Shown: positions 7,946-61,598, numbered from the stretch's first letter. The stretch is DNA of 64,000 nt from a virus (IMGVR_UViG_3300005330_000014:128001-192000); one strand, 5' to 3'. Numbers and translations: made by a program. The notes: generated from the sequence alone by a model not told the origin.

Positions 7946-8821
7946 ATGGATAAAAACGCAATTATTAAGCAGTATGAAACAGTGGCTTATTCTCACCCCG
8001 TTCTTAAAAAACAGGAAGAATATGATTTAATTAAAGGGTATAAAAAAAATGGCGACCCTGCGGCCAAGGAAAAATTAATTAACTCCTATTTGAGAACGGT
8101 TATTAATTTGTCGAAAAAATTCGCACACAATAATAACCTTGACATTTTAGACTTAATTCAATCTGGAATCGTGGGAATTGTGACAGCATTGGATGGGTTT
8201 GATTTAAGTCAGTATAAGAAAATAACTAAAAATACAGGAAGCTTGTTCGCTTTTTGGTGCTATCGCCATATTTTATGTGAGATAGATGCATATTATCGTA
8301 ATAACATTCGTCAAGTAGCTGTTACTTTTACTACAAATAACAGGCTATTTAAAATAAACAATATGTATAAACAAGGTTTATTTAATAAATATGAAACATT
8401 GTATGATGATGCTGTAGTTAAACATATCTCAAAAGAACTTAAATTAAAAGATAAAGAAGTAAAACTATTATTAACTTTATTTAAGCCAGCGGTGGAACTT
8501 GACAGAGAGCCAGAAACTTCTGAAAGCGAACACGATAACCACAATTCAAGTTATCAAGATACTATTCTAAAAGATTATTCTGATAATGAAACCCCGGCGG
8601 ATATTTATGAAAGAAATGAAAAGTATGAAGATTTAATTAGTAAAATTGATAACCTTGATAAAGAAGATCGTTATATTATTCAACATCGTTTTGGAATTAA
8701 TTGCGAAGTAGAAAGTTTGTCTGATATTGGCAAGAAAATCGGATGCTCTACTGGAAATGTGGCCGCGCGGACTAAAAAAATTCAAGATAAGCTGAAAAAT
8801 ATGATTACGACTCAAATCTAA
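7946..8821 (+). CDS. Phage-encoded sigma70-family RNA polymerase sigma factor
   Basis: Region 1.2/2-like (EEYDLIKGY, AKEKLINSYLRTV, DLIQSGIVG, FD, FAFW) and region 4 HTH (IIQHRFGI...SLSDIGKKIG). Confidence 0.85.
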   Translation: MDKNAIIKQYETVAYSHPVLKKQEEYDLIKGYKKNGDPAAKEKLINSYLRTVINLSKKFAHNNNLDILDLIQSGIVGIVTALDGFDLSQYKKITKNTGSLFAFWCYRHILCEIDAYYRNNIRQVAVTFTTNNRLFKINNMYKQGLFNKYETLYDDAVVKHISKELKLKDKEVKLLLTLFKPAVELDREPETSESEHDNHNSSYQDTILKDYSDNETPADIYERNEKYEDLISKIDNLDKEDRYIIQHRFGINCEVESLSDIGKKIGCSTGNVAARTKKIQDKLKNMITTQI

Positions 8822-8829
8822 ATCATATA
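8821..8829 (+). promoter_or_regulatory. AATCATATA motif (putative middle-promoter element); also at 9844, 16403, 41258, 42858
   Basis: Identical 9-mer shortly upstream of several gene starts. Confidence 0.35.
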
Positions 8830-8857
8830 ACGAAACAGACACTAAAATCTCAAATCT

Positions 8858-9181
8858 ATGAATACACACGATTCCATCCCCGAAGTCGGGGCTCAAACCG
8901 GCGATGACTCAGAAAAAGTCGCACAAACTCAAAATCAACAAATTGCTTATTTAATTGAAGCGACTACTGTTGATACTCATGTAAATATTATGATTTCTTT
9001 ACTTGAAAAAATCAATTTCAAGTTAGTTCAGAATATTCTTGAAAATACCCCGGCGGATAAACAGGATAATCTTCACTATAAAGTTCTTAAGGCGACTTTT
9101 GAATACTATGAGCATGTAAATGATGCTTTTAATGACGAAGCCGCGCCCGAAGCCCCTTTAATTACTCCAGTATTTAGATAA
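8858..9181 (+). CDS. Hypothetical protein
   Basis: 107-aa co-oriented ORF. Confidence 0.7.
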   Translation: MNTHDSIPEVGAQTGDDSEKVAQTQNQQIAYLIEATTVDTHVNIMISLLEKINFKLVQNILENTPADKQDNLHYKVLKATFEYYEHVNDAFNDEAAPEAPLITPVFR

Positions 9182-9369
9182 ATGATGAATTTCAATATCG
9201 AAAGCAATTCTGAAAAATATGAGCCTAGTCCAGAAGAGTTAGCAGAATTTGGATTAATGGAATTATTACAAATTAATTGTCCCGATAAGGATAGGCATAA
9301 TGCAATTCGACTAAGCGGTAGCGATGACGGGTGCCTCACTTGCGGATATTATAGCAAATAATCATACTT

Positions 9370-9840
9370 ATGACTCTTAATCAAATTAAAGTAAACTTAT
9401 TCAGTCATTTTAAAGAAAATAATCAATTTATCTATCCTGACGACCGACTAAAAGTTGTTCCAATTTCAGAAACGCCCGAGTTACATTATGCTGCAATTAT
9501 AGAAGCATTAAAGGATTTTGAAGCTGCTAAATTGGTTTCTAGAATTGAATACATAGAGGGGAAAAAAGTAAAAGAAAATAAAATTGGATATATTCTTGAA
9601 AAGCCAGCCGAATTGTTTACTCAAAACCTACAAATCCCCGGCGATTTAGCTCTTGAAATTTCCACCTTAGTTAATTCATTAAATGTTGATTTGCCGGATA
9701 TGAAGAAGTTTTCCTCAAGTCCTTTGGGAATTACTCTTAATGATATTGAAATACTTATTTTATTGGCCCGCGCGTACGTTAACCAAGCAAAAGGCGGTGA
9801 AATTCAAGGTAAAGAAGAATCGAATGATTTTTTGAGTTAA
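9370..9840 (+). CDS. Hypothetical protein
   Basis: 156-aa co-oriented ORF. Confidence 0.75.
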   Translation: MTLNQIKVNLFSHFKENNQFIYPDDRLKVVPISETPELHYAAIIEALKDFEAAKLVSRIEYIEGKKVKENKIGYILEKPAELFTQNLQIPGDLALEISTLVNSLNVDLPDMKKFSSSPLGITLNDIEILILLARAYVNQAKGGEIQGKEESNDFLS

Positions 9841-9863
9841 CGAAATCATATAACCTTAAAAGT

Positions 9864-10955
9864 ATGATTAATGTTAATGTCCCGATCAATAGTGTGTCTT
9901 TTGGCTTTGTTGCCGCGAATATTCTTGTTGAATTATTTAAACGAAAAATAGATATTCGATTATTTCCAATCGGCGGACAAGTAGATTTAAGTTCATATTC
10001 AGTAGCCGCGCGGCTACCCGGATTTGAAAACTATCTAAAAGAATCTATTTATTATGCTTTGGAAAAATTTGATCGAAACGATCCGACTTTAAAACTTTGG
10101 CATATTCGAGATTCAGAACAGTCATACGGAGTCCGGCGGAACCTATTAACTTTTCATGAGTTAAGTGAACTAACTCCAAATGAAGTAAATATCTTAAGAA
10201 ATCAAGATACTATTTATTTAACTTCTAAATATTCTCAAGAGGTTTTTAAAAAGTATAATATTGATTCAATTTATTGTCCACTTGCATTCGATAGCCTTCA
10301 TTTTAATAGAATTGAAAAAAGAGCTTATAAAGACGACAGAATTGTATGGGGTTTAGTTGGAAAATTAGAACCGTCCCGAAAAGGCCACGCGAAAGTCATC
10401 CAAAACTGGATTAAGAAATACGGGAATAATCATAAACATGTTTTACATTTACATGTTAATAACCCATTCTTAAATAAGGAACAAAATGAAGGGCTGTTAA
10501 ATCAGATTTGGAACGGACAAAAACCTTTCAATATTAATGTTTTGCCACAGGTTCAAACATTAACAACTCTTAATCAGTGTTATAATAGTATTGATATTAT
10601 TCTTGATGGTTCGAGGGCGGAAGGATTTTCTTTGCCAAGTTTTCATTGTTTAGCTTTAGGTAAACATGGAGTTATTCATAATGCCACAGCAATGAAAGAT
10701 TGGCTACCTAAATCGGGTGCCGTAACGTTTGAATCATCTAATTTAATTGAACCCTACGATAATATGTTTTTTCCGAAAGGTGTTCCTTGGAATCAAGGTT
10801 TAATTTGGGATTGGGATGATAATGAGTTTCTTTCTGCTATGGAAACTGCCGAAAGAAAATTCTTGTATAATCCTTTAAATGAAACTGGATTACAACTACA
10901 ACAAGAATATACTTGGCAAAAAACTGTTGATATTCTTTTGAAAAACTTAAAATGA
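9864..10955 (+). CDS. Glycosyltransferase, GT-B fold (GT4-like)
   Basis: VGKLEPSRKG, YNSIDIIL, SRAEGFSLPSFHCLALGK (ExFxLP motif). Confidence 0.8.
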   Translation: MINVNVPINSVSFGFVAANILVELFKRKIDIRLFPIGGQVDLSSYSVAARLPGFENYLKESIYYALEKFDRNDPTLKLWHIRDSEQSYGVRRNLLTFHELSELTPNEVNILRNQDTIYLTSKYSQEVFKKYNIDSIYCPLAFDSLHFNRIEKRAYKDDRIVWGLVGKLEPSRKGHAKVIQNWIKKYGNNHKHVLHLHVNNPFLNKEQNEGLLNQIWNGQKPFNINVLPQVQTLTTLNQCYNSIDIILDGSRAEGFSLPSFHCLALGKHGVIHNATAMKDWLPKSGAVTFESSNLIEPYDNMFFPKGVPWNQGLIWDWDDNEFLSAMETAERKFLYNPLNETGLQLQQEYTWQKTVDILLKNLK

Positions 10956-11324: not shown

Positions 11325-11329
11325 CTATT

Positions 11330-11515: not shown

Positions 11516-11516
11516 G

Positions 11517-21385: not shown

Positions 21386-21985
21386 ATGGGAAGTTTATCT
21401 TACTTCAATCTCAATGATTATGTTAATCAGTATAATCTAAATGGATTTCTTGAAACGGGTTTGGGACACGGGCATGGGATTCAATATGCTACTACTTGCA
21501 ACTTTGAAATTTGTTATTCAATTGAAATATCTAAAGAAGTAATTCAACGATATCACAGGATGTATGGTAATAATTCAAAAATTAATATTATACAAGGAAC
21601 TAGCAAATTTGGATTACAGCATGTATTTGAACATGATTCCAATAAACAATATTTAATCTTTTTGGATGCCCATTTCCCGGCGGCTGATTTAGGTTTTGCA
21701 GGTTTTAATGATGAAAAGAATGACTCTCTTAAGTATCCCCTGCTTGACGAATTAAAAATAATTAAAAGCCGCGCGGATAAAGGTTATAAAGACGTTATAA
21801 TTGTCGATGACTTAATGTTTTATTCAAACGAGATTTTCCCAGATTCTCATATTAAAAGCTATTTTAAAATTGAGCCGCCAAAAGACAATAACTGCTTAGA
21901 TAAAATCATGAGTTATTTTGATAAAACTCACAAAGCAGAATTGGTTAAACAGTTTAGTGGTTTTGGGATTTTTACACCTAATTAA
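21386..21985 (+). CDS. Class I SAM-dependent methyltransferase
   Basis: FLETGLGHG, YSIEIS, IFLDAH, IIVDD. Confidence 0.75.
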   Translation: MGSLSYFNLNDYVNQYNLNGFLETGLGHGHGIQYATTCNFEICYSIEISKEVIQRYHRMYGNNSKINIIQGTSKFGLQHVFEHDSNKQYLIFLDAHFPAADLGFAGFNDEKNDSLKYPLLDELKIIKSRADKGYKDVIIVDDLMFYSNEIFPDSHIKSYFKIEPPKDNNCLDKIMSYFDKTHKAELVKQFSGFGIFTPN

Positions 21986-25649: not shown

Positions 25650-26399
25650 ATGAAAATAGGAATTATTTTTACAGCGTTCAACTCAGCAGATTTAATCCTT
25701 AAATGCCTAGACCCGTGGATTAAAGTTAAAAACACTTTAAATCATCAGTTTGTTTATAGTTGCGTTTCAGTCCCTTTTGAAAAATTCAATATAGATAAAA
25801 CTGACAATACAGTTGAATTAATTAAAACAACTGGCATCATGGATTTTTTGTTTGCCGATGGACAATTCAAATCTGAAATAGCCGCGCGGGGCATCTGTTT
25901 AGATTATTTAAAAGATAATGGGTGTGATTTTATTTGGCAAGTTGATGCTGACGAATTTTATACAGTAGAAGATATAACAAATATAGTTAATTACATAGAA
26001 AAAGACAAATCTACATTCTGGTGGAAACTTTGTCTTAAAAACTATTTTCAAACAGACAAACAATATTTGGCTGAACCATTTACTCCGGCGCGGATTTTTA
26101 GAGTTAATCAACCTCCTTATAAATTGGGTGATTTCATTCAAGATAATGACATTTCGTTTTTTTATCAACGGGCAGAAATACCTAATTCATTTGTTAAAAG
26201 TAAAGTGATTCCACGCGAAGTAAATTGGACAAAGCACTTAAGTTGGTTAAACGGGTCGCGTAGTCGCGACAAAATTTTTTACCAAAATAAACGCTGGGGT
26301 AAGTCAAGTTATATATATGATGAGGTTACAGAAACGGTAAACTTTAATCCTGACTATTATCCCGGTGGACAATTTCCTGAAGTAATACAAGAAATTTAA
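25650..26399 (+). CDS. GT-A fold glycosyltransferase (GT2-like)
   Basis: SEIAARGICL, WQVDADEFY, KHLSW. Confidence 0.75.
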   Translation: MKIGIIFTAFNSADLILKCLDPWIKVKNTLNHQFVYSCVSVPFEKFNIDKTDNTVELIKTTGIMDFLFADGQFKSEIAARGICLDYLKDNGCDFIWQVDADEFYTVEDITNIVNYIEKDKSTFWWKLCLKNYFQTDKQYLAEPFTPARIFRVNQPPYKLGDFIQDNDISFFYQRAEIPNSFVKSKVIPREVNWTKHLSWLNGSRSRDKIFYQNKRWGKSSYIYDEVTETVNFNPDYYPGGQFPEVIQEI

Positions 26400-27415: not shown

Positions 27416-28267
27416 ATGAAAGTTTGCATCTTAGGTGGTGGATTTATTGCTAAAAACCTTATCAAATATCTTGAAAAGCAAAAAGATATTAATATCTTAG
27501 CTGTTGGATATGAAGCTGTTAATTCGCACGCTTCAATTAGATTCGACATTAGAAATTCTGACAGTATTGAATTGTGTTTTATAAATGGTCCTTATAATAT
27601 TATTATAAATTGTACGGGTATTTCCAATTTTTCTAGCTGCGAAGATAATAATAATTATTCTTTTGATGTAAATTGTCATGGACCCCTTAATATTTTAGAC
27701 TATATCCATTGTGATTCTCATACCACTCGTTTTATTAACTTAGGAAGCATTCGAGAATTTGATTCTGATTCGTGGTATGCGCGCACAAAAAAAATATCTA
27801 GAGAAATCGTTGGGTATTATCGTGAACAAAAAGGCATGTGGGCCGCGCAATTATATTTACCTAATATAGTAGGAAAAGAACAGGATGCCGCGCGATTTGT
27901 TGTCCCTAAAGTTATTGATTTTGTTGAAAATTTTGCTAAAAATCCGGCGGACTCAAAACTCAAATTAGGGAATCTAGATTCTACACTTAATTTAATTCAT
28001 GTGGATACAGCCTGTGAACTTATCTGGCGCGCGGCTCAATCGCAAACCCCTATAGACTACTTACTTACAGGAGAAAAAATTTTGTTAAAAGATTTTGTAG
28101 TTAAAATATTTCAAAAATTTGGCATACAAGATTGGGAAAATTACGTTGAAATTGACCAGTCATTAGTTCGCCCGAACGATAATCCTTATTATATAGAATT
28201 AGTTAAACATGCTTTAAAAAGTAATGATACGGTTGATGACATTATTAATAAGCTATGTCAGGCTTAA
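27416..28267 (+). CDS. NAD-dependent epimerase/dehydratase (GDP-mannose 4,6-dehydratase-like SDR)
   Basis: ILGGGFIA Rossmann motif, YARTK (YxxxK), LGNLDS, EIDQSLVRP. Confidence 0.75.
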   Translation: MKVCILGGGFIAKNLIKYLEKQKDINILAVGYEAVNSHASIRFDIRNSDSIELCFINGPYNIIINCTGISNFSSCEDNNNYSFDVNCHGPLNILDYIHCDSHTTRFINLGSIREFDSDSWYARTKKISREIVGYYREQKGMWAAQLYLPNIVGKEQDAARFVVPKVIDFVENFAKNPADSKLKLGNLDSTLNLIHVDTACELIWRAAQSQTPIDYLLTGEKILLKDFVVKIFQKFGIQDWENYVEIDQSLVRPNDNPYYIELVKHALKSNDTVDDIINKLCQA

Positions 28268-29022
28268 TCGGAGTTGAATGGCGCGGTGGCAACAAATTAG
28301 GAGATAGACTTTGCCGAATTTCTCTTTTCGAGAATTATTACAAGAATACAGGCGATAAATTAATTGATTTGATTGGCATGGAATATACTAAGTATAATCC
28401 TTATGTTTTACAAATCTCTGATATTCACCCCAATACTTTATCTAGAATTGAAAAGCGGTGCTTATGGAATTATCCGCCGCGTGCCGTTCCTTTTGATTCG
28501 TTTAAAACGATGGCGCACGAAGTTTGTGCCCGATGGGATTTGCCAGTTTGTTATTTAAATAGGTCGCGCTTATATAAATACGAAGATTCGATTAAGTTTC
28601 CTAGAAGTTTAGTTATCAACACTACGGGGCGTGGACACGGCGCAATTCCCCTACATGTTATTAAACATATTCGAGAAGCTTATAAAAATTATACAATTAT
28701 ACAAATTGGTGGTTTGACTGATATTGACGCGGGCGCGGATTTAGATCGGCGCGGCTGTGATTTTTGGGAATCTGCTAAATACATGAGTGAATGTGAAATC
28801 GCTATCATTCCAGATAGTTTTTGTTATTGGCTTTCCAAGTGTTATAGAATGCATCGTAAAGTTATACTAACTAACTTATCCGCCGAGAATTGTGAAAAGT
28901 TCTTACCGCGCGGCTATCATATTGATAATTGGGAACAAGATTGGTGGCTAGAGTTAGATGCTGAATTTTACAATATTTACGAACAAGACTTTGGCATAAC
29001 TAAATCCTATTTATCAATCTAA
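28255..29022 (+). CDS. GT9-like glycosyltransferase
   Basis: KLGDRLC, IIQIGG, DFWESAKYMSECEIAIIPDSFCYWLS. Confidence 0.6.
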   Translation: MSGLIGVEWRGGNKLGDRLCRISLFENYYKNTGDKLIDLIGMEYTKYNPYVLQISDIHPNTLSRIEKRCLWNYPPRAVPFDSFKTMAHEVCARWDLPVCYLNRSRLYKYEDSIKFPRSLVINTTGRGHGAIPLHVIKHIREAYKNYTIIQIGGLTDIDAGADLDRRGCDFWESAKYMSECEIAIIPDSFCYWLSKCYRMHRKVILTNLSAENCEKFLPRGYHIDNWEQDWWLELDAEFYNIYEQDFGITKSYLSI

Positions 29023-30123: not shown

Positions 30124-30131
30124 TAACAACT

Positions 30132-31268
30132 ATGAGTAAAGCTAAAGAAAAAAATAAAGAGGAAGAAACAGACGAAAAAGTTTTAACACCACAGCAGCAA
30201 GCCGCCGCGTTATTTAAAGGTAATAAAACAGATATTTACAACCACGAAGCAGATCATCATTCTCAAACTCCATCTTCTAGTTTGATTATGAATTCTATTA
30301 TGGGTGGTGGATTGCCTTCGGGCGCGTCCCGTGCAATCGGCAATAGTTCCGGCGGCAAATCTTCTTGTTCTCTGGATTTTATGTTTCATTTCTTGCAGCA
30401 AGTTACTAAACGTAAAGGCGTTTACGCCGACGCGGAAGGAAAACTAAACAAAAATATTAGAGAACGTTCTGGTGTTAAATTCGTGACTGATCCCGAGTTA
30501 TGGGAAGATGGAACTTGTTTAATTGTTCAAACTAATGTGTTTGAATTTTTATTCTCCTTTATGGGGGATTTAATGAGAAACAATCCAACTGATACTAAAT
30601 ATTTCTTTATTGTTGATTCAATTGATATGTTAGCGCGGCGCGATGACTTGCTTAAAAATATGGAAGATTCAGCCAAGGTTGCGGGCGGAGCAGTTTTAAC
30701 TTCAGTATTTTTAAAACAAACTTCAGCGGCGATGGCAAAGCGCGGACATTATTGCGTATTTATTTCTCAAGTTAGAGATGCGGTAAAAATTGACCCGCGC
30801 CAAAAAACGGATACTAATAAACAAGGAAAAGCGTCGGGCGGACATGCGTTAGAACATGCCCCTGAATGGGTATTAGATTTTCAACCTAGATATCAGGATG
30901 ATATAATCAGGGAAGATGACAATGACAAGAAATCTAAACCATTAGGACATTATTGCAGAATTAACATTGTTAAATCGAATAATGAGACTTACGGACAAGA
31001 GATTAGATATCCAATTAGATATGGGCGCACAGGCGGCACTTCTGTTTGGGTGGAAAAAGAGATTGCAGACTTTGCTTTAATGTGGAATTTCGCCAAAAAA
31101 GAGAAAAGCTCTTATTACTTTTCAGACGAATTAAAACAAGAATTTGCCGATAACAATATAGAAATCCCTGAAAAATTCGTTGGAATTAATAAGTATATGC
31201 AATTTTTTGAAGACCGCGCGGACGTAACCAGTTTTCTTTACAAAAAATTCACCAAACTCTTAGGGTAA
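30132..31268 (+). CDS. recA: RecA-like recombinase
   Basis: TPSSSLIMNSIMGGGLP, GNSSGGKSS (Walker A variant), IVDSI, FISQVR, GGHALEHA, VKS. Confidence 0.88.
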   Translation: MSKAKEKNKEEETDEKVLTPQQQAAALFKGNKTDIYNHEADHHSQTPSSSLIMNSIMGGGLPSGASRAIGNSSGGKSSCSLDFMFHFLQQVTKRKGVYADAEGKLNKNIRERSGVKFVTDPELWEDGTCLIVQTNVFEFLFSFMGDLMRNNPTDTKYFFIVDSIDMLARRDDLLKNMEDSAKVAGGAVLTSVFLKQTSAAMAKRGHYCVFISQVRDAVKIDPRQKTDTNKQGKASGGHALEHAPEWVLDFQPRYQDDIIREDDNDKKSKPLGHYCRINIVKSNNETYGQEIRYPIRYGRTGGTSVWVEKEIADFALMWNFAKKEKSSYYFSDELKQEFADNNIEIPEKFVGINKYMQFFEDRADVTSFLYKKFTKLLG

Positions 31269-32246: not shown

Positions 32247-32633
32247 GTGAAGAAGCCTCCAAAGCCGAGCAAAGCCCCGGCACCGTTCAGTAAAGAGCGA
32301 AAAGATTTAATCAAAAAACTCATATCTAAGATAGATTACACAGTCTTTCCTAGAGAAATGAAAATGGCGGGACAACTTTTCGAGTTAATCCCCGATGCTG
32401 CTTTTTGGGCGCAATTCGAGCCGCCAAAATTTATCGGAGAATTAGATAGTTTAAGAATTTTCATGGGAGAATGGGGGCAAGACTATCTTCGTAAACAATT
32501 CAATTTGTACAATCATATAAAAGAGAATGAGATTGTAAAACCAATTGAGCCGCGCGGCCTTAAAGTCGGCGAAGATTACAAAATCATTCCTAAGTCAAAA
32601 CAATCTAATTTACTAGAATTTTTAAAAAGCTAA
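32247..32633 (+). CDS. Hypothetical protein (GTG start)
   Basis: 128-aa ORF directly before the helicase. Confidence 0.65.
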   Translation: MKKPPKPSKAPAPFSKERKDLIKKLISKIDYTVFPREMKMAGQLFELIPDAAFWAQFEPPKFIGELDSLRIFMGEWGQDYLRKQFNLYNHIKENEIVKPIEPRGLKVGEDYKIIPKSKQSNLLEFLKS

Positions 32634-32637
32634 AGTA

Positions 32638-34074
32638 ATGTCATTACAAATTAAAAACAGACTCGAAACAGAACGGCAAAGCCTTGCGGCATTAGTCCAA
32701 TACCCTGAAATTTTTCCTGATATTGATGCAGTAGTTAAAGAAAATTTTTACTCAAATAAACTAAATCAAGTAATTTTTGGGATAATTAAAACAACCATTC
32801 TCGCTAAAGAGCCGTTGGATAAGTTTACAATTGCCAATAAAATTGCAAATCTTAACTTAACTTTTGAAGTTGATGTTTATGGTTACTTGGAAGCTCTTGA
32901 AATAATTCAAATAAATAAAGCCGCCGCGCTTTCTTACTTCAAACAGTTGGCAACTATTTGGGGAAAAGAGCAGATTTACAAGCAAACCGAAGGAATTCAA
33001 AAGTATTTAAATAATACAGGAAATGATAGTTTCGATAGAATTATTGCTAATACTGATTCTTTATATAGTGAAATTACTAACAGCTTTCATTTAAACAATG
33101 AGCCGCAGGATTTATTTGAAGGAACAAAAGAATATATTGAAGAATTAGGTAATTTAGACGGGTCGGAAGAAATTAAGTTTCCGTTCCCCCGCTTCCATAG
33201 ATATTACGGCGGGTTAGAGCCGGGATTAATTTTGTTTGTTGCCGGTTTTAAAGTCGGAAAGTCGTGGTGGCTACTTAATCTCTTGAAAAGAGCTTGCACT
33301 GATAATAATGATGTTGAAGGCTTGTATATTGACACTGAAATGTCTACTAAGGAGGTTAAACGCCGGGCGGTAGCAGAATTGGCTCAAATTAATGAGTATT
33401 ATTTAAGACATGGGTGGAGAAATGACAAAGAGTTATGTGATAAAGTCCGCGCGGTGTGGCCGAAAATTGAAGCATGGTTTGGCAGAATGCAACATCTATA
33501 TGTAGGTAATATTTCTAGCGAAGAAACTGAATCAATTATCCGCCGATGGGTTTGGAAGAAACGGGCGGAAAAACCGGGGATCAAGCCAGTTATTTTCTAT
33601 GATTACTTTAAGTTACATGATGGTGATTCTATTAAAGATGCTTTTGCTAGTTCAATGGTTTTAGGTTACAAAGTAGATAGATTAAAGAAAATTTCCCAAG
33701 AGCTACAAATTCCAATCGTCGCGGCGGCGCAAACAAATGCGGAGGGTAACGTTGGATTAAGTAGAGAAATACCTAAATTTGTCGATAGTGCTTATAAACT
33801 AAGGCTGAGAAGCACTGAAGAAATTGAGGATGAAGGCGGGCCAGCAACTCATAAAATTGAAAGTATTTGTAATAGAAGTCTCGGCCCCGAAATGAAACAG
33901 TTTAATGATAAGGTTAAAATTGGTAAAGACAAGGAAGGAAAAACAATTTGGCGGGAAAATGCAATACTTTACAAATTCAAAGACTTTCGAGTGGAAGAAC
34001 TTAATACGGTCAAAGAGCAAATGAGTCTTCAATTAATGTCAAATAAAAGAAAAGATTCGGGGGAGATACTATAA
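32638..34074 (+). CDS. dnaB: DnaB-like replicative helicase
   Basis: N-terminal ERQSLAAL, AGFKVGKS Walker A, YIDTEMS, FYDY, AAAQTN. Confidence 0.88.
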   Translation: MSLQIKNRLETERQSLAALVQYPEIFPDIDAVVKENFYSNKLNQVIFGIIKTTILAKEPLDKFTIANKIANLNLTFEVDVYGYLEALEIIQINKAAALSYFKQLATIWGKEQIYKQTEGIQKYLNNTGNDSFDRIIANTDSLYSEITNSFHLNNEPQDLFEGTKEYIEELGNLDGSEEIKFPFPRFHRYYGGLEPGLILFVAGFKVGKSWWLLNLLKRACTDNNDVEGLYIDTEMSTKEVKRRAVAELAQINEYYLRHGWRNDKELCDKVRAVWPKIEAWFGRMQHLYVGNISSEETESIIRRWVWKKRAEKPGIKPVIFYDYFKLHDGDSIKDAFASSMVLGYKVDRLKKISQELQIPIVAAAQTNAEGNVGLSREIPKFVDSAYKLRLRSTEEIEDEGGPATHKIESICNRSLGPEMKQFNDKVKIGKDKEGKTIWRENAILYKFKDFRVEELNTVKEQMSLQLMSNKRKDSGEIL

Positions 34075-35145: not shown

Positions 35146-36032
35146 TGGAAGTTGAATTAGAACATTTTGATATTAAAGACTTTTTAAGATCGAATGGTTA
35201 TCCCGTACGTGATTCCGGCGGCCAATGGATTCAGTCTGTTTGTAAATATCGCGGTGGACAAAAATTCAATTTAAGTATCAACAAACTTTCAGGTAAATGG
35301 GTGGATTTCGTAACAGGTCAAAAAGGAACAATCAACGAATTAGTTAAAGTAATTGGCGGCGAATATCAAGATGTTAGTTTTGAGCATTTTACCAATGAAC
35401 CAAAGCTAGATTTACCCAAAAAATTCGACAAATCAATACTAAATTATCTAGAAAAGGATCATAGTTATTGGGTGAATAGGGGAATTAGCCGCGCGGTTTG
35501 CGAGGATTTGGGCGGAGGTATTGCTGACCCCGAGAAACTACCCAAACTTAAAAACAGGTATATTCTGCCAATTATAGGATTAAAACAAGAATTAGCAGGC
35601 TTTACGGCGCGCTATATAGGTAATAGTAAATCTAAATCAATTCCCAAATACAAACATATAGGAGAAAAGAGCAAATGGATTTGGCCACGCGCCAACTCTA
35701 TAGATGAAACCAAAAGAGTAATATTAGTAGAATCCCCGGCTTGTTGCATGAGTCTTATGACTTGCGGGATTAATGATTCTTTGTGCTTATTTGGGGTTAA
35801 GCTGTCTGGTACTATTATCAATTATCTTATTGGTTTGTCGGTAAATCATATAGTTATATCAACAAATAACGAACCTGATAATGAAAGTATAGGCAATCGG
35901 GCGGCTCAGGATATCAAAGATCAACTAAGCAACTATTTTGATAATGTTGAAGTTCGATTACCCTCTTTAAAAGATTTTAACGAAATGATTTGTAAAATGG
36001 ATAAACAATCAATTATAGAATTACTAAAATGA
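35145..36032 (+). CDS. dnaG: DnaG-like primase (divergent TOPRIM)
   Basis: Reduced Zn-domain-like N-terminus, YWVNRGIS, RYILPI, GFTARYI, KYKH, VILVES; position after the helicase. Confidence 0.7.
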   Translation: MEVELEHFDIKDFLRSNGYPVRDSGGQWIQSVCKYRGGQKFNLSINKLSGKWVDFVTGQKGTINELVKVIGGEYQDVSFEHFTNEPKLDLPKKFDKSILNYLEKDHSYWVNRGISRAVCEDLGGGIADPEKLPKLKNRYILPIIGLKQELAGFTARYIGNSKSKSIPKYKHIGEKSKWIWPRANSIDETKRVILVESPACCMSLMTCGINDSLCLFGVKLSGTIINYLIGLSVNHIVISTNNEPDNESIGNRAAQDIKDQLSNYFDNVEVRLPSLKDFNEMICKMDKQSIIELLK

Positions 36033-37117: not shown

Positions 37118-37172
37118 TAGATAAACAAACCCTCATTTAGCCGCGCGGCTCAACTTAGTTTTCAAAAATATT

Positions 37173-38657: not shown

Positions 38658-39893
38658 ATGTTAGATATAAACAAAATTTATCAGGGTCATAGCCTTGATA
38701 TCCTAAAAACTTTCCCTAATGAGTCGGTGCAGTGTGTAGTAACGTCGCCCCCTTATTTTTCGTTGAGAAGTTATTTAGATACTGAAAATCCTAATAAACA
38801 TTTAGAAATTGGATTCGATAATTCACTACAAGAATATATCACAAATTTAACAAGTCTATTTTCTGAAATTCACAGAGTATTAAGAAAAGATGGAACATTT
38901 TGGCTAAATTTAGGAGATACTTATGCTGGTAATAAACTTGGCAATACTCAAGGTACTTATTCTTCTAACTTAAAGTATGCAAACCCAGAGAAAGACTTAG
39001 AAAGCTTCCGTAAAGAGAATGAATATAAAAAGACAGTGCCAATGGGACTCAAATCAAAAGACTTAATAGGTGTTCCTTGGCGTGTTGCTTTTGCTTTGCA
39101 AGATGCTGGGTGGTATTTACGCTCTGATATAATTTGGGCAAAAAGTATTAGTTTCAACTCTAAATATACAGGTAGCTGCTTACCGGAAAGCTGCAAGGAC
39201 CGCCCTACTAAATCTCACGAATACTTATTCTTATTAACAAAATCTCCAAAATATTTCTATGATAAAGAAGCTGTACAAGAAAAAGCTCAAGATTGGGGTT
39301 CAAGAAATCGTGATGAATTCCGGGGTGGGACTACTGATCCTAAACTAAAACATCATGGATTAGCTGATTGTGATTTTAGTGCATCCGGCAGAAATCTAAG
39401 ATCGGTTTGGACAGTAAATCCAAAACCATTTAAAGGCGCTCATTTCGCCACCTTTCCCGAAAAACTAATTGAACCATGTATTAAAGCGGGAACTAGCGAA
39501 TACGGTTGTTGTGTGAATTGTGGGAAACCTTACAAAAGAATAACAGTTAAAGGTAATGCTGACGAAGAACACAAGAAGACTTGCGGCGCGGATTCTAATG
39601 GAGAATATCTGGGATTAGCTACTAAAGATTATGATTCCGCCCGAGCGCAAAATGCCAGCGAAGTAAAAGCAAGAATTTTGGCCGGAATGGTTAAAACTAA
39701 AACAACTGGGTGGAAAAAAGATTGTAAATGTTTAACTAATGATATTAAACCTTGTGTTGTGCTCGATCCATTTTTCGGTGCAGGGACGACAGGAGTTGTA
39801 TCTAAAAAATTAGGTCGTAGCTGGGTCGGAATTGATTTGAATCCAGAGTATTGTGAAATCGCACGGACAAGAATTAATGAAGTTCTTATTTAA
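38658..39893 (+). CDS. DNA amino-methyltransferase (N4-C or N6-A, beta order)
   Basis: TSPPY N-terminal, DIIWAK, HFATFP, VLDPFFGAGTT C-terminal. Confidence 0.92.
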   Translation: MLDINKIYQGHSLDILKTFPNESVQCVVTSPPYFSLRSYLDTENPNKHLEIGFDNSLQEYITNLTSLFSEIHRVLRKDGTFWLNLGDTYAGNKLGNTQGTYSSNLKYANPEKDLESFRKENEYKKTVPMGLKSKDLIGVPWRVAFALQDAGWYLRSDIIWAKSISFNSKYTGSCLPESCKDRPTKSHEYLFLLTKSPKYFYDKEAVQEKAQDWGSRNRDEFRGGTTDPKLKHHGLADCDFSASGRNLRSVWTVNPKPFKGAHFATFPEKLIEPCIKAGTSEYGCCVNCGKPYKRITVKGNADEEHKKTCGADSNGEYLGLATKDYDSARAQNASEVKARILAGMVKTKTTGWKKDCKCLTNDIKPCVVLDPFFGAGTTGVVSKKLGRSWVGIDLNPEYCEIARTRINEVLI

Positions 39894-41189: not shown

Positions 41190-41274
41190 GTCCGCGCGGA
41201 ATTATTTTCAAAAAATCCAAAGAAAATCGAAAAAAATCTGAAAAACCGAGAAATCAGAATCATATAGTCTGGAT

Positions 41275-42840: not shown

Positions 42841-42930
42841 TAAAGGCCGCGCGGCAGAATCATATACTCTGAGTAGAGAGCAACGCCAAATTCGGCGGCT
42901 CTAAGTTCTTTGAAATCTTAAATCTCAAAT

Positions 42931-45813: not shown

Positions 45814-46353
45814 ATGAACAATTTAAAAAACACAGAATGTTACTTAGCGGGCAATTTAGAAAACACAGATGATGCCGTTTCTTGGCGCGAAAATGCAACG
45901 ACTGTTCTTAAAGAATTAGGAATTGTTTCATTAAATCCCCGCATTCAATGTTTTACCAATCAGCTTAATGAGGATCAAGAGTCCGCCGATTTTTTAAAAG
46001 GTTTATTAGCTAAAGGTGAACATCACACGGTTAAAGATTTCATGCAGAAAATTATCCGCCGGGATTTACGGATGGTTGACCGCGCGGACTTTATTATAGT
46101 AAATCTAGAACCAAAATTACCTACTTACGGAACAACCCATGAGATTGTAGTAGCTTCATTACAAAGAAAACCAATTTTACTTAGAATGGACGATAAATCT
46201 AAATTACCTTTATGGTATTGTGGATTATTAGATATGAGTTTAGTTTTTGAAAAATGGGATGATTTATATCATTATATAAGATATGTTAATGACTGCAACC
46301 CGCAAGAATTAGATGGAAAATATTGGAAAATATGGAGTGACGAATACAAATAA
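45814..46353 (+). CDS. Nucleoside 2-deoxyribosyltransferase-like protein
   Basis: YLAG, WRE, LNPR, DLRMVDRADFIIV, GTTHEI. Confidence 0.75.
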   Translation: MNNLKNTECYLAGNLENTDDAVSWRENATTVLKELGIVSLNPRIQCFTNQLNEDQESADFLKGLLAKGEHHTVKDFMQKIIRRDLRMVDRADFIIVNLEPKLPTYGTTHEIVVASLQRKPILLRMDDKSKLPLWYCGLLDMSLVFEKWDDLYHYIRYVNDCNPQELDGKYWKIWSDEYK

Positions 46354-48670: not shown

Positions 48671-49471
48671 ATGAAAAACAAAATAATTGGGTTAGTCATT
48701 TTACTCTGTTTAGGTTGTAACAGTCAGATAAAAGAGGCCGCGCGGCCACCCGATTTACTCAGTAAAACAGGATATAACTTAGTTTTTAATGATGAATTTA
48801 ATGGGAATAAATTAGATGCCAATAAATGGAATATCGAAGATGGTCCGCGAAATTCAGCTATAAACTGTCCGCAATCCATTATCGAATCCGGTGGCTCACT
48901 TAAAATTCATACTTTTATTAACAATAATAAGTATTACACGGGAATAATTAATACTAGAAATAAGTTTATCTTTAATAAGGGATATTTAGAAGTCCGCGCG
49001 GCTTTCAATGATATCCCCGGCTCATGGTCAGACGTTTGGTTATTTAATGACAATGTTTCAAAAGATGAAATAAATCCTGAAATTAATGGCGTGGAAATAG
49101 ATGTTTTTGAACATCGTGCGTTTAATTATTATAATAATCCAATATCAGATAGAGTTAATTTTGCAACTCATTATAATGGCTATGCCAAATTACATGAAGG
49201 AGAATACTTTTTAACGCCTCCACTTGATTTAAATAAAGGTTTTCATATTTTCGGATTCTTGTGGGATGATAATGGCGGGACTTTTTATATAGACGGCAAA
49301 CAAGCTGGGCATTTAAATATTCCTTACACAGTCGCTAAGAATTTCATAGTAATTGGGTCAGAATTAAGTAATCATCAATTTGAATGGACTTATTTTTTAC
49401 CGAAAGAGTTAAATCAAAATGTTATGGAGATAGATTATATAAGAGTATATCAGAAAATTTTAAAGAAATAA
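48671..49471 (+). CDS. Glycoside hydrolase family 16, predicted lipoprotein
   Basis: Lipobox LCLGC; LVFNDEFNG, GYLEVR, EIDVFE catalytic motif, FHIFGFLW, EIDYIRVYQ. Confidence 0.88.
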   Translation: MKNKIIGLVILLCLGCNSQIKEAARPPDLLSKTGYNLVFNDEFNGNKLDANKWNIEDGPRNSAINCPQSIIESGGSLKIHTFINNNKYYTGIINTRNKFIFNKGYLEVRAAFNDIPGSWSDVWLFNDNVSKDEINPEINGVEIDVFEHRAFNYYNNPISDRVNFATHYNGYAKLHEGEYFLTPPLDLNKGFHIFGFLWDDNGGTFYIDGKQAGHLNIPYTVAKNFIVIGSELSNHQFEWTYFLPKELNQNVMEIDYIRVYQKILKK

Positions 49472-52725: not shown

Positions 52726-55700
52726 ATGGATAAGGTAACTTGCATATTTGGCAGTCATTATAGCTTCAGCGGTTCTAGCATTCTCACGGTTGACGAAGCA
52801 GAGGAAATTAATGAATCTAAACCAGTTTCGGTTTTTTCTATAGCTAAACACTACGAACTAAAAGACGTATTTTTAGCAGACAAAACATTAAGTGGCTTAA
52901 TTGATTCGTATAATGCCGCCGGGAAAATCGGAATCAATCTTCATTTTGGTTTTAAAGTCATTTGTTGCGAGGATATAAATGACAAAAGCGAAAAATCATT
53001 TGAAACTGAACATAAGATAATTGTTTGGTTAAATGATTCGCGCGGCTACGTTAATTTTGTCAAATTGGTTTCAAAGGCACAAATTGACGGGTTTTATTAT
53101 ATCCCCCGCGTGGACAAGAATCTTTTGAAGGAATTTTGGTCGGAACACCTTTCCATCTCAATCCCCTTCTATGATTCCTTTATTCATAAAAATACCTTAG
53201 AGTTCGGCAAGTGTGTTCCCGAGTTTCCCGCCGCCCCAACCCTATTTATAGAAAATAATGGGCTGCCATTCGATGACTTGCTAAAGGAACGGGTTTTAGA
53301 ATATGGCAAAAGCGAAAATCTAGAAATTGTCAATTCTAAATCAATTTACTATTATAAAAACGAAGATTATAAAGCTTATTTAGTAAATAAAGCAATTAAT
53401 AAACGAACAACTTTAGAAAAACCTAACTTAGAACATAATAGCTCAGATCAGTTTTCTTTTGAATCCGCGCAGGAAATTGGAATTGATTACGAAAATAAGT
53501 CAAAGTTTTCTCAATCATTTTCTAAATATAATTTACCGTTTTATGGTATCCGCCTCCCAAGCGTCGATATTACTTCGGAAATTAGAACCAAAATTGGCGC
53601 GAAAATTGATGATGACAATTATACTATTCTAAAAGCTTTATGTGTTACCGGCTTCAAACGAAGAATTGCTGATGGCACAATTCAAGACTCTGAAACTCAA
53701 TGGTATAAAGATAGAATCAAACACGAATTAAAAACGCTAAAAACTCTTGGGTTTGTTGATTATATCCTAATTGTTTGGGATATGGTTAACTTTTGCCATG
53801 ATAACAAAATCCCAGTCGGGCGAGGTAGAGGCTCGGCAGCGGGCTCGGCAGTTTTGTATTTACTGAATATTACTGATATTCCAGTCAAAAGGCATGGACT
53901 TTGGTTTGAACGATTCTTGTCAGCGGATCGCGCGGCGGTAATTATTAAAGATGGTATTTCGTTTTTGCAAGATTCACCTGACGTAGATCAAGACGTTTCC
54001 CGCTCACAAAGATACAAAGTAGTTGACTATTTAAATAAAAAATATCCGGGGCAAACTTCTAAAATTCTCAATATATCAACCTTACAAGGGAAAGTATTAA
54101 TTAAGGAAGTTGCTAAATGCGTGGATAATTGCGAGCAAACTGAACTTAATTTAATTACTGATTTGATTCCAGTAGAGTTCGGGAATGTTGCCGATATTGA
54201 AAGAACGTATAATGAAAATCCTGATTTCAAAACTTGGTGCGACAATCATTCCGAATCTTATAAAATTGCTTTAAAATTGCGTGGACTCGCTAAAAATGTG
54301 TCCGTTCATGCTTCTGGCTATTTAATTACTCACTGTCAAATTAATGAATTTATTCCAACACAACTGACCGCCGATAAAGAGATAGTTAGTTCTTTTGATA
54401 TGTATTCCGCCGGGAATATTGCGGTTAAGATTGATTTGCTTGGATTGAAGACTTTAGATATTTTAGATACGGCTGGCAAATTATGCGACAAACCTTTTGA
54501 TAAAATAAACATTGATGATCCAAGTATCTATAAGTACTTATCAAATCCTGAAGCCCCTTTTATGGGTATATTTCAGGCGGAAGAAGGATTAGGAGAAAAA
54601 ACTTTAAGAAAAATCAGTCCTGAAAAGATTGATCATATTATTGACTCTATTGCAATTGGTCGCCCGGGCGCTATGCGATACACCCAAGACTATTGCGATT
54701 TCAAAACTAAAGTTAAATTTCCTAATATTGATCCTCGCGTCGAAGACATTTTGGGGCCGACTGGCGGACTTTTGATATATCAAGAACAACTCATGGCATT
54801 AAGCGTGAGAATGGCAAAGTTTACTCCAATCGAGTCTGGAGGAATTAGAAAAGCTGTTGGCAAAAAAATCAAAGCCAAAATGCTTTCGTATAAAGAAAGA
54901 TTCATTAAACAAAGTATTGAAAACGATTATTCGGAAGAGTATTCAGAAGATATTTGGAAGACTTTTGAAAATAGCGCAGACTATTCTTTCAATCTTAGCC
55001 ACAGTGCAAGTTATGGCTATTTAACAGCTATTACTGCTTATTTCAAAGCTAACCACCCGAAAGAGTTTTTCTTAGCATTACTTAAAAATGCACAAAATGA
55101 ATCTGAACCATTAACTGAAGTAAACAAAATTCAAAAAGAATTAAAATACTTTGGAATCCAACTGTTACCCCCTTGCTTATTAAAAGGCAATATTGATTTT
55201 GTTATTGAGGGAAACGACATTCGGTTTGGTTTGAATTCTATTAAAGGACTTGGTGAAGCAGTAATTGAAAAACTTAATAATTTCCGCCCGGAAAATTGTA
55301 ATAAATTCCAAATGTTTCAAGCCGCGCGGCAAGCTGGATTGTCTTGCGGTGCAATGGCGGCGCTTGTTATGTCCGGCGCTTTGGATATATTTGTTAAAGA
55401 ATCTCGCAGTAAATTATCATTTGAATGCTTACTTTTCTCTAAACTAAAAGACAAAGAAAAACTATTTTGTATTGATAATGCTCCACAGTATAATGATGAC
55501 TTAATTACAATGTGTCAAGATATTCTGAATTGGCATGACTCCCGAGGGAAAAAAGTCGCACGCTCTACCCGTTTAAATACTCTCAGAAAAGAAACTAAAA
55601 AGTATCAAGAAATCTATAGGAATAACAAAGCCAATCAAGCTTTAAGTAACTATTGGTACGAAAAAGAATTACTTGGGTTCGGCTATTCTAGCAATCTAAA

Positions 55701-56152: not shown

Positions 56153-56371
56153 ATGCAACGAAATCCAGACAATAATATCATTCGAGTAAGCCGCGCGGAA
56201 TTAGATAAATTAGGTTATAAACCTCTTGAAATAACTAAAGATAAAAAAGGAAATGTAATCCCCGCGCCTGCCGGTAGTTTATTAGCTTTACTTAAAGATG
56301 AAAATTTATGGGCTGAGTTAGACAAACACGCGAAAGTAACGCCCGATAAACATTTAATACTGATTAAATAA
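56153..56371 (+). CDS. Small hypothetical protein
   Basis: Co-oriented ORF. Confidence 0.55.
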   Translation: MQRNPDNNIIRVSRAELDKLGYKPLEITKDKKGNVIPAPAGSLLALLKDENLWAELDKHAKVTPDKHLILIK

Positions 56372-59500: not shown

Positions 59501-59509
59501 TTTTAAATT

Positions 59510-59716
59510 ATGAATAAATCTTATAGATTCTTTTATCATTTTCGTAAATCCACGCGTGGCATGACTGTGCATTTTAAAAATACCTGCCTCTCCTGCAAAA
59601 ACGTAGTTTGTAAAACTGAATGTTCTACTAAATGGAATTCCCGGCAACCTAGATTGGTTATGCAAGGATTTGCTAAAAAAGTTACTGTAGAAAATGATAT
59701 AGCTTATATAGAATGA
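59510..59716 (+). CDS. Small conserved phage protein
   Basis: RFFYHF, TVHF, QPRLVMQG. Confidence 0.6.
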   Translation: MNKSYRFFYHFRKSTRGMTVHFKNTCLSCKNVVCKTECSTKWNSRQPRLVMQGFAKKVTVENDIAYIE

Positions 59717-60183
59717 GTAGTCTAACTTTATTAGTTGGGTCCATAGCGTCAGGAAAATCAACTTATATATCTCAAAATATAAACGAAAACGTTTTAGTAA
59801 TTAATGACGACGCTATCGTTAATGCTCTACACGGTAATTTTTATAGATTTTACAACAAAAAACTTAAACCTTTATACAAATCTATTGAAAATTTGGCTAT
59901 TAGTTGGGGGTTATCCGCCGGATTAGATGTTGTTATTGATCGACCAAATCTAAGTCCAGATACTAGACAAAGATATATTCAACTAGCCAAATCATTTGAT
60001 TGTAAAGATATCATTGCAGTAGTATTTCCGATGATAACTCCAGAAGAGGCCGCTCGCCGTCGCTTTAATTCAGACAATCGCGGACAAAATTATGAATATT
60101 GGCTTCGCGCGGCTCAAGATCAATTAAAATCATATAAAACGGTAGAATTAAATGAAGGATTTAGCGAAATAGTTAATCTATAA
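59713..60183 (+). CDS. P-loop kinase (AAA_33 / polynucleotide-kinase-like)
   Basis: GSIASGKST, VVIDRPNL...R. Confidence 0.8.
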   Translation: MSSLTLLVGSIASGKSTYISQNINENVLVINDDAIVNALHGNFYRFYNKKLKPLYKSIENLAISWGLSAGLDVVIDRPNLSPDTRQRYIQLAKSFDCKDIIAVVFPMITPEEAARRRFNSDNRGQNYEYWLRAAQDQLKSYKTVELNEGFSEIVNL

Positions 60184-60184
60184 C

Positions 60185-60595
60185 ATGAACCAAGAACAAC
60201 AAGAAGCTTTACAGCAAGATGTTAATGCTAAACGTCAAACCTTAACTGATGGATTACCTGAAGAAATTGAAAAACAATTCAAAGCAGTCGAAAAAGCAGT
60301 TAAAACATTAGTAGATGCCAAGGTAGTTTTTTACTTATTTCCTTTATTGCCGGATAATACAGGCAGACAGGGAACTTGGCAATGGAACTCCATCGGCGCA
60401 TTGGCTGAATATGATCAATCGGGGAATGTTACCGAAAATTGGAAACAAGTTACTAGTGATATGAATATCGGGTTAGTTTGCTCAGTATTTCATACTTTCG
60501 TTAATCAAAGTCAATATGCACAATTTTCTGAAAACGATAAGTTGCTTATGTACATGGAATGGTTAAAAGATAGTTTAAATTTAAAAAATGAGTAA
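60185..60595 (+). CDS. Hypothetical protein
   Basis: 136-aa ORF. Confidence 0.65.
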   Translation: MNQEQQEALQQDVNAKRQTLTDGLPEEIEKQFKAVEKAVKTLVDAKVVFYLFPLLPDNTGRQGTWQWNSIGALAEYDQSGNVTENWKQVTSDMNIGLVCSVFHTFVNQSQYAQFSENDKLLMYMEWLKDSLNLKNE

Positions 60596-61598
60596 ATATC
60601 TATCATATAAAGACGTTTGTTTAGTTCCTAAGTATTCGGAGTTAGAAAGCCGCGCGCTGGCCGATACTTCAGTGGACTTATGCGGATTTAGATTCAAGCT
60701 TCCATGTGTGCCCGCGAATATGGAGACGGTAATTGATCCTAAAATAGCTCATTTCTTAAGCGAGAATGGTTATTTCTATATAATGCACCGATTCAATATT
60801 GATGTTGATTTCGTACGTAAAGCACAAGATTGGAAATTGATTAGTATTAGCTGCGGAGTTAACTACAATCAGAAAGAAGCCGACTTATTAGGAGATGCTT
60901 ATGTTAATAACCGAAGAATCGACTTCATTACTATTGATGTGGCCCACGGCGATCACCTTAAAGTTAAACAGAAAATAGAATGGCTTAAGCAAGTTTTCCC
61001 AAAAACCAAGATTATTGCTGGTAATATAGCCACCCCACAAGCCGCGCGGCATTTAGTTAAATGGGGTGCGGACATAATTAAGGCCGGAATTGCGGGCGGA
61101 AGCATTTGCAGCACTCGTTATCAAACAGGTTTTCATATTCCTATGTTTAGTTGCATTAAGAATATTGATTATGATTTTCGCCCGGCTACTTATTCGTTTT
61201 ACGTAGGGTCTAATCCACATGGAATACCTAATCGAGCCGGAATAACTAATCAAATTAACACTCCTATTATTGCCGATGGTTCTATTTCTAACATTGGAGA
61301 TATTGCCAAAGCAATCAACGCCGGGGCCACTATGGTTATGTGCGGTAAATTATTTGCTGAATGTATAGATTCCCCGGCCAAAACAGTTAATGGTAAAAAG
61401 CAATATTACGGTTCTACCTCATTTGAGGCAAAGAAAACTAATTCCCATATTGAGGGACATTTATTAGAAATGGATTTTGGAGTAACCGTGCAAGAAAGAT
61501 TAAAAGAAATAGAAATGGCTCTCCAGTCTTCGATTTCCTACGCGGGCGGCAATAAAATTGAAGATTTAAGAAAAGTAGATTATATAGAGGTTAATTAA
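60588..61598 (+). CDS. guaC: GMP reductase
   Basis: PANMETVI, ITIDVAHG, IIAGNI, GIAGGSICSTR, IIADG, YYGS, LQSSISYAG. Confidence 0.9.
   Translation: MSKYLSYKDVCLVPKYSELESRALADTSVDLCGFRFKLPCVPANMETVIDPKIAHFLSENGYFYIMHRFNIDVDFVRKAQDWKLISISCGVNYNQKEADLLGDAYVNNRRIDFITIDVAHGDHLKVKQKIEWLKQVFPKTKIIAGNIATPQAARHLVKWGADIIKAGIAGGSICSTRYQTGFHIPMFSCIKNIDYDFRPATYSFYVGSNPHGIPNRAGITNQINTPIIADGSISNIGDIAKAINAGATMVMCGKLFAECIDSPAKTVNGKKQYYGSTSFEAKKTNSHIEGHLLEMDFGVTVQERLKEIEMALQSSISYAGGNKIEDLRKVDYIEVN

Follow-up and report, generated by a model that had tools for sequence, protein, structure and literature searches.

An all-G/C palindrome in an AT-rich rhizosphere jumbo phage as a probable survivor of G/C clustering and palindrome purging

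The 8-bp palindrome CCGCGCGG is found 18 times in a 64,000-nucleotide stretch of an AT-rich phage genome (bases 128,001-192,000 of the single 208,233-bp virus record IMGVR_UViG_3300005330_000014; hereafter, the window), where a first, sequence-only reading had taken it for a genome-wide functional mark like the HIP1 (highly iterated palindrome 1) sites of cyanobacteria. We consider it probable, on balance, that CCGCGCGG is not selected in its own right but is a by-product, a survivor word, of two DNA-level properties of the clade to which the phage belongs. In the mechanism that we propose, an AT-rich genome would pack much of its G+C into short pure-G/C islands (in all reading frames and in non-coding DNA) and would purge nearly every GC-containing palindrome of the classical restriction-target type, both of which we observe; island sequence would then be channelled into the few words that remain, chiefly those of the CGCGCG series with an outer C and G. 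CGCG words may be tolerated or even favoured in this process, either because they escape every restriction system in the host range or because a methyltransferase shields CGCG-type sites.

Abundance of the palindrome and its behaviour as a unit

The copies, of which at least 18 had been claimed, number exactly 18 in the window, with starts from 8763 to 61042. The earlier estimate of ~0.02 copies by chance had assumed a GC content (~31%) that was too low: the window has 34.0% GC (34.8% for the genome), for which the expectation with independent bases is 0.043 copies, and dinucleotide shuffles of the window yield 0.17 ± 0.38 copies, with a maximum of 1. The whole genome holds 57 copies, about one per 3.6 kb. 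Of these, 43 are coding in our own set of open reading frames (ORFs), versus 1.13 ± 1.09 under a genome-wide synonymous codon shuffle, and the remaining 14 are intergenic; non-coding DNA makes up 12% of the genome, so the word is about twice as dense there. All three frames are used by coding copies (Ala-Ala-Arg type, Pro-Arg-Gly, and Arg-Ala type), and the copies at 37141, 41192, and 42847 do lie between genes. The signal was thus rightly placed at the level of DNA, being independent of frame, present between genes, and robust to both dinucleotide and codon-shuffled nulls. Equally sound were the observations that the CGCGCG core (168 sites), CCGCCGG, and CCGGCGG are conspicuously frequent, and that the first 8.7 kb of the window lack CCGCGCGG; about 1.5 copies are expected there by our own arithmetic, so this gap is not significant, and the same 8.7 kb have the lowest density of G/C islands in the genome. 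Overall, the 57 sites track island density, and their spacing appears random at the scale of 208 kb, with gaps of 19-20 kb.

Of the 16 palindromic 8-mers that consist of G/C alone, fifteen occur 0 to 4 times each, against 57 sites for CCGCGCGG. The two halves of this word behave independently. In our half-site test, the expected number is obtained from the count of the inner palindrome and the symmetrised frequency of the flank that is needed, the latter entering squared; for CCGCGCGG, 168 CGCGCG sites times 0.59 squared gives 58.3 expected copies versus 57 observed, and because the half-sites are independent, the 8-mer cannot be said to be favoured as a palindrome. The 7-mers tell the same story: an outer C is present on 57 of 100 CGCGCGG, matching the general flank preference of 0.59, and ~42% of 7-mers stand outside the 8-mer. 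Across the nested series, the ratio of observed to expected sites is 1.01 for GCGC, 1.12 for CGCGCG, 0.98 for CCGCGCGG, and 1.19 for GCCGCGCGGC, whereas for nearly every other GC-rich palindrome it lies between 0 and 0.5. CCGCGCGG therefore belongs to the sole all-G/C palindromic series that is not disfavoured, without any favouring of the 8-mer itself. Variants that differ by a single letter do so most often at an outer position (TCGCGCGG, 48 sites; GCGCGCGG, 28 sites). The three longer palindromes that had been named around copies in the window all exist; however, palindromic extension occurs at 40% of sites, versus 37% expected from flank preference (C at position +1 in 50%), and because this is the level of chance, the longer palindromes carry no extra information and were rejected as traces of a larger element.

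Pure-G/C islands, purged palindromes, and the choice of word

Pure-G/C runs of at least 7 bp number 835 in the genome, versus ~83 expected with independent bases, and those of at least 8 bp number 515, versus ~29. These islands are mostly 7-13 bp in length, occur about once per 250 bp, and are spelled in hundreds of sequences (CGGCGGC, CGCGCGGC, CCGCCCG, CCGCCGG, CCCGGCGG, and many more). At four-fold sites, the G/C fraction rises smoothly from 0.16 without G/C neighbours to 0.72-0.76 with at least 7 flanking G/C. Islands start in all three codon phases. Coding DNA holds 3.9 of them per kb and non-coding DNA almost as many, at 3.1 per kb once hairpin partners are removed (an inverted partner exists for just 21% of the islands in non-coding DNA). 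Their spacing is exponential and Poisson-like (coefficient of variation, 1.05), for a genome whose 208 kb are too short to reveal periods of 10-90 kb. In limited literature searches (GC clusters in phage genomes), we found no description of such islands in phages.

The islands are a property of the clade. We compared five lineages, namely, this genome and four relatives represented by ~20-37 kb each, with no phylogenetic control: L001+L008 (L008 being a second contig from the sample of L001, syntenic with the window at 32-40 kb and pooled with L001 as one phage), L002, L003, and L004. DnaE identity to the window phage is 71% for L001, 63% for L002, 53% for L003, and 40% for L004; no isolated phage is close to it, and the DnaE relatives were found on metagenomic contigs only, whereas looking for related loci among viral contigs with DnaE gave none. 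Runs of at least 7 bp are in 10- to 14-fold excess in all five lineages but show no excess in the AT-rich phages used as controls (ratios of 0.9 for T4 and 0.8 for Bacillus phage G). The observed/expected ratio of CpG is 1.2-1.9 in every clade lineage examined.

In a five-way codon alignment of dnaE, islands align without indels where codons for Ala, Gly, Pro, Arg, or Ser cluster, which led us to reject mobile GC clusters, inserted into the genome, as their origin. The gene has 38 island blocks, of which 23 are unique to one lineage, and the conserved peptide GRPGAM is encoded by an island in all five lineages but with differing spellings. Turnover was measured across 90 orthologue pairs at four-fold sites with fixed G/C neighbours on both sides. 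In either lineage of a pair, 75-82% of the four-fold sites in island context carry G or C; the odds ratio for a shared G/C state is 2.9 in islands, which does not clearly exceed the 1.8-2.1 that serves as baseline in AT context, and the letter (C versus G) agrees at only 62% of orthologous G/C four-fold sites. G/C-ness is thus kept while letters turn over, which argues against the mere survival of old G:C pairs and disfavours both a relic of a GC-rich ancestor and pure protection from deamination. Islands thus arise anew, through a preference for G/C beside existing G/C that depends on context, rather than being held at fixed sites. As to their cause, we favour a bias in repair or conversion, or diffuse selection on G/C-ness (for example, on how stable the duplex is locally or on readout through the minor groove), over the survival of old G:C pairs. 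We also considered that clustering of G/C might dilute restriction sites of mixed composition and set this aside: runs of 2-4 fall short of the geometric expectation by just 12-23%, and clustering makes all-G/C tetramers commoner, not rarer.

The second property is the erasure of palindromes. The 208-kb genome entirely lacks 20 of the 64 palindromic hexamers, for which 5 to 90 sites each are expected. The largest expectations among them are those of CCGCGG (74-90), TTCGAA (38-51), GCCGGC (31-37), GGCGCC (27-45), and CGGCCG (24-26); the list is completed by TCCGGA, CGATCG, GGATCC, CCATGG, CTGCAG, GGGCCC, CAGCTG, CTCGAG, GTCGAC, GACGTC, GTGCAC, AGATCT, GAGCTC, GGTACC, and CACGTG. Other words that are likewise at zero are CCWGG (versus ~120 expected), AGATCC/GGATCT, and GGTCTC; ACCGGT, AGGCCT, and CCTAGG have one site each genome-wide. 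In total, hexamer palindromes with at least four G/C have 360 sites versus 817 expected, and of the eight that are all G/C, five are purged (CCGCGG, GCCGGC, GGCGCC, CGGCCG, and GGGCCC) and GCGCGC and CCCGGG are depleted, whereas AT-rich palindromes are spared. The only GC-rich palindromes that remain unpurged in every lineage are those containing CGCG (ACGCGT, TCGCGA, and CGCGCG). The purged set is specific to the lineage: CCGCGG stands at 0 observed versus 74 expected here but at 56 versus 38.7 in L001+L008 and 13 versus 15.5 in L003, CGGCCG at 0 versus 24 here but 22 versus 26 in L003, and TTCGAA at 0 versus 38 here but 6 versus 11.5 in L001.

The missing words are classical Type II restriction targets, and the pattern resembles restriction avoidance. 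Rusinov et al. are said to have surveyed the avoidance of restriction sites (palindromes) in phage genomes in 2018. The present genome is alike in that palindromes of the Type II-target kind are missing far beyond chance and in a lineage-specific manner; it differs in the unusual scale of the loss (20 hexamers and CCWGG at zero in 208 kb), which places it among the most complete erasures of palindromes known to us for a phage of this size, and in that the purge leaves a surviving word, CCGCGCGG, seemingly hugely over-represented. Behind this effect lies the packing of the genome's G+C into pure-G/C islands.

Channelling of this kind is visible where the encoded peptide leaves few options: seven of the eight all-G/C sites encoding Pro-Arg-Gly are CCGCGCGG, because the three alternatives contain CCGCGG or CCCGGG. 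It is also visible between lineages. In lineages that have purged CCGCGG (this genome, L004, and L002), CCGCGCGG accounts for 5.4-7.4% of the 8-mer windows that are all G/C; in those that tolerate CCGCGG (L003 and L001+L008), it accounts for 0.9-1.5%. L001+L008, with 56 CCGCGG in 37 kb, has just 2 copies of CCGCGCGG, its dominant GC words being CCGCGGCC and CCCGGCGG; L003 has 22 CGGCCG, 12 GCCGGC, and 13 CCGCGG, and is dominated by CGCGCGGC, CGGCGGCC, and CGGCCGGC, with CGGCCG also prominent. Across these five lineages, the word seems to track the pattern of purging more than it tracks phylogeny, because the most distant relative, L004, shares the top word of this genome.

The residual excess and rival explanations

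How much of the excess these properties explain can be read from constrained nulls for the 43 coding copies. Keeping the protein and the exact pattern of strong and weak bases yields 10-11 expected copies (compared with 1.1 for the codon shuffle), forbidding the 20 hexamers that are absent, or penalising all depleted palindromes by degree, raises this to 16-17, and also allowing for the observed excess of CGCG raises it to 21. Preferences for dinucleotides or trinucleotides among G/C letters give 17-19, adding little, and such low-order word preferences are insufficient as the source of what remains. Avoidance of restriction sites, which had been named as a possible full explanation, therefore accounts for part of the excess (as in the channelling of Pro-Arg-Gly) and leaves another part standing.

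Several observations weigh against our reading of CCGCGCGG as a survivor word. With all constraints held, 16-21 coding copies are expected versus 43 observed, a difference of ~8 standard deviations; a further factor favours CGCGCG-type words, and this residual, roughly 2-fold (~2.3-fold) excess is real and unexplained. It reflects a general liking for alternating CG within islands. CGCG is moreover the sole palindromic tetramer above its half-site expectation (795 versus 554), and this is true of all five lineages. The association between purge and word across the five lineages falls short of significance (Spearman coefficient, -0.6; P = 0.28). Restriction enzymes are a presumed cause of the purge, deduced from which words are missing, and any cause proposed for the islands is likewise tentative. 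Finally, the clade conserves an N4-cytosine-type methyltransferase, a candidate link to CGCG-type words.

This enzyme (38658-39893) is the only match to PF01555 in the genome and the only DNA methyltransferase found among the Pfam families searched. In beta-class enzymes, SPPY/F marks N4-cytosine methyltransferases (e.g., M.PvuII) and DPPY marks adenine enzymes; from its TSPPYF motif, we take the window methyltransferase to be of the N4-cytosine type, and its relatives in PDB include both kinds. Orthologues are present in the L001/L008 phage (62% identity) and on a 224-kb contig taken as the L004 lineage (59% identity), where the JGI label reads cytosine-N4-specific. In that most distant relative, the methyltransferase is better conserved than DnaE (59% versus 40% identity). 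The window protein has an insertion of ~270 residues, with several Cys (CCVNC, CKC), between its two conserved Pfam blocks. From sequence, the enzyme is a candidate reader or writer of CGCG-type words, and the unpurged CGCG palindromes would fit protection by it but would equally fit a lack of host restriction enzymes with such targets. A search of the literature on N4-methylcytosine or CGCG methyltransferases of phages returned nothing pertinent.

One rival account assigns this enzyme a central role: it would methylate the inner CGCG or CGCGCG, and repair bias or selection would make or keep the sites, so that CCGCGCGG would be a HIP-like, methylation-coupled word and each lineage's "alternate HIP" would match the specificity of its own enzyme. 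We regard this as unlikely, although it keeps a modest share of our belief because the two-fold residue is unexplained and the enzyme is conserved. Resemblances to HIP1 (GCGATCGC) are several: both are hyper-abundant 8-bp GC-rich palindromes found in all frames and between genes (HIP1 exceeds composition-aware expectation 15- to 300-fold [PMC5861425]; for CCGCGCGG, the corresponding counts are 43 coding copies versus 1.13 and 18 in the window versus 0.17). As in HIP1 and the alternate HIPs, one-letter variants concentrate at outer positions (Elhai 2015, PMC4390886), the methyltransferase is an orphan, and the dominant word varies between related lineages; the CGCG-containing palindromes that escape the purge in all lineages would also suit such a role. 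Yet two defining features fail, and for this reason we do not file CCGCGCGG as a HIP. In HIP1, the 7-mers and the full 8-mer occur at nearly equal frequency (Elhai 2015, PMC4390886), whereas here the halves are independent and 7-mers often stand outside the 8-mer. HIP1 sites are conserved between genomes (Xu, Lawrence and Durand 2018, PMC5861425), whereas here neither sites nor C/G letters are conserved across orthologues, and the dnaE copy is respelled in relatives, all of which are distant (40-71% DnaE identity).

Other features also differ between the two systems. No regular spacing of CCGCGCGG was seen within the 208 kb, the word is just one of the hundreds that islands contain, and it probably owes its prominence to a choice of word linked to the purge, so the view of it as a HIP1-like functional mark is not upheld. 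The phage enzyme is of the N4-cytosine type, and no cognate repair genes were found in the phage: its genome has no match to Vsr, MutS, or UDG, and therefore any methylation-coupled repair would need a host source, nor is there a match to the C5-methyltransferase family PF00145. The methyltransferase family (at ~45% identity) occurs in thousands of contigs, and two contigs bearing it lack the island excess, although at 54-56% GC they are uninformative. Another known system shows that a methylation-related palindrome can be in excess through a process rather than a function: Vsr repair in Escherichia coli leaves CCWGG over-represented and CTWGG under-represented. Our case is similar in being process-driven; it differs in that the phage has no match to Vsr or a C5-methyltransferase and in that the transition neighbours of the word are not depleted (TCGCGCGG, 48 sites).

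The remaining accounts carry far less weight. That CCGCGCGG is selected because a phage protein binds it symmetrically as a dimer (to organise, package, or replicate the genome, for example) is suggested by the word's perfect symmetry, its average interval of ~3.6 kb, its presence in all frames and between genes, and its doubled density in non-coding DNA; we consider this improbable given the absence of cooperativity between the halves, the random spacing with its gaps of 19-20 kb, the chance level of palindromic extension, and the few or no copies in relatives with the same replication and packaging modules. Still less credible is selection of the (CG)3 core for Z-DNA or an otherwise unusual structure. 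CGCGCG and CGCGC are, respectively, the commonest all-G/C hexamer palindrome and the commonest all-G/C pentamer, but most islands do not alternate, GCGCGC is depleted to 0.56 of expectation, and the longer alternations that would form Z-DNA better are nearly absent (CGCGCGCG, 1 site versus 9.5-11.5 expected; GCGCGCGC, 1 site versus 3.7-9.1); it is this near-absence of (CG)4 that led us to reject the idea. Least probable of all is an origin in demands at the level of protein or RNA, whether for peptides with Ala-Arg or Pro-Arg-Gly, from codon usage, or for hairpins that serve as terminators. The 43 coding copies do encode Ala-Ala-Arg, Arg-Ala, or Pro-Arg-Gly, and one intergenic copy lies in a hairpin, but use of all three frames and the codon shuffle refute this origin, and orthologues retain amino acids rather than letters. 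The hairpin in question, outside the window at genome positions 49192-49235, is strong, with a 15-bp stem and the copy at 49214 as its loop; no common fold was found for the other 13 of the 14 intergenic copies, for which a terminator or hairpin origin was accordingly rejected.

Placement in the window and meaning for the clade

The window that holds these copies (Table 1) comes from a jumbo phage and carries its genes for replication and nucleotide metabolism. They encode a polymerase of the DnaE type, a DnaB-like helicase, and primase-like (Toprim) and RecA-like proteins, along with a class II ribonucleotide reductase, a GMP-reductase-family enzyme, glycosyltransferases, and the one DNA methyltransferase. 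DNA of this phage comes from rhizosphere metagenomes, and one run (X2) contains a strain that is ~2% divergent, as estimated from the share of shared words.

Table 1. Copies of CCGCGCGG and the DNA methyltransferase gene in the window (window coordinates; the strand of all 18 copies is given as "."; CDS, coding sequence)
Feature	Coordinates	Strand	Location	Frame or remark
CCGCGCGG	8763..8770	.	CDS 7946-8821 (sigma-factor-like)	Ala-Ala-Arg
CCGCGCGG	10006..10013	.	CDS 9864-10955	Ala-Ala-Arg; inside 16-bp palindrome GTAGCCGCGCGGCTAC
CCGCGCGG	21769..21776	.	CDS	Arg-Ala frame
CCGCGCGG	25882..25889	.	CDS 25650-26399	Ala-Ala-Arg
CCGCGCGG	28906..28913	.	CDS 28255-29022	Pro-Arg-Gly; three all-G/C synonymous alternatives carry purged CCGCGG or depleted CCCGGG
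CCGCGCGG	31214..31221	.	RecA-like gene 30084-31268	Arg-Ala frame
CCGCGCGG	32550..32557	.	CDS ending 32633	Pro-Arg-Gly
CCGCGCGG	33447..33454	.	DnaB-like helicase gene 32638-34074	Arg-Ala frame
CCGCGCGG	35489..35496	.	Toprim (primase-like) gene 35145-36032	Arg-Ala frame
CCGCGCGG	37141..37148	.	Intergenic, within AGCCGCGCGGCT	No consistent hairpin or terminator
DNA methyltransferase	38658..39893	+		Beta-class PF01555; motif IV TSPPYF
CCGCGCGG	41192..41199	.	Intergenic	
CCGCGCGG	42847..42854	.	Intergenic	
CCGCGCGG	46080..46087	.	CDS 45814-46353	Arg-Ala frame
CCGCGCGG	48738..48745	.	GH16-like gene 48671-49471	Ala-Ala-Arg; within GGCCGCGCGGCC
CCGCGCGG	48994..49001	.	GH16-like gene 48671-49471	Arg-Ala frame
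CCGCGCGG	55322..55329	.	dnaE 52726-56142	Ala-Ala-Arg; orthologous codons in relatives TCG GCC CGA, GCG GCG CGA
CCGCGCGG	56191..56198	.	Small CDS 56153-56371	Arg-Ala frame
CCGCGCGG	61042..61049	.	GMP-reductase/IMPDH-family gene 60588-61598	Ala-Ala-Arg

The window dnaE is uninterrupted. In L003 (8197-12721), a LAGLIDADG-type gene separates dnaE into a PHP part and a polymerase part, and in L001 a LAGLIDADG ORF (3113-4117) lies a few genes upstream of dnaE. A different recurrent word, TAACTAAA/TTTAGTTA, has 107 copies genome-wide versus 25-41 expected under low-order Markov models; 40% of these copies are in non-coding DNA (for example, upstream of many window genes), often 11-60 nt upstream of a co-oriented start codon, making the word a candidate promoter or leader element. 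A literature search for CCGCGCGG itself returned primers and unrelated matches only.

For motif hunting in phage genomes, the survivor-word reading is a caution: the excess of a palindrome over simple nulls can reach several hundred-fold without selection on the word, through G/C clustering combined with heavy purging of restriction sites, and the test of half-site independence offers a simple means of discriminating a selected word from a by-product. What remains of interest is why the clade builds G/C islands at all. It is conceivable, though we hold it to be rather unlikely, that the islands, whose commonest palindromic form here is CCGCGCGG, are actively maintained genome-wide in this clade of AT-rich soil jumbo phages, with G/C-ness over ~8 bp being selected or created by a clade-specific system and the words re-tuned to the restriction landscape of each lineage; such a system might be the conserved N4-cytosine methyltransferase or a minor-groove reader of G/C runs. 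If so, phages would have their own equivalent of the HIP-type punctuation of chromosomes, and the literature that we searched contains nothing of this kind. An explanation of the islands might bring to light a new bias of mutation or repair in phages, or selection on their DNA of a new form.

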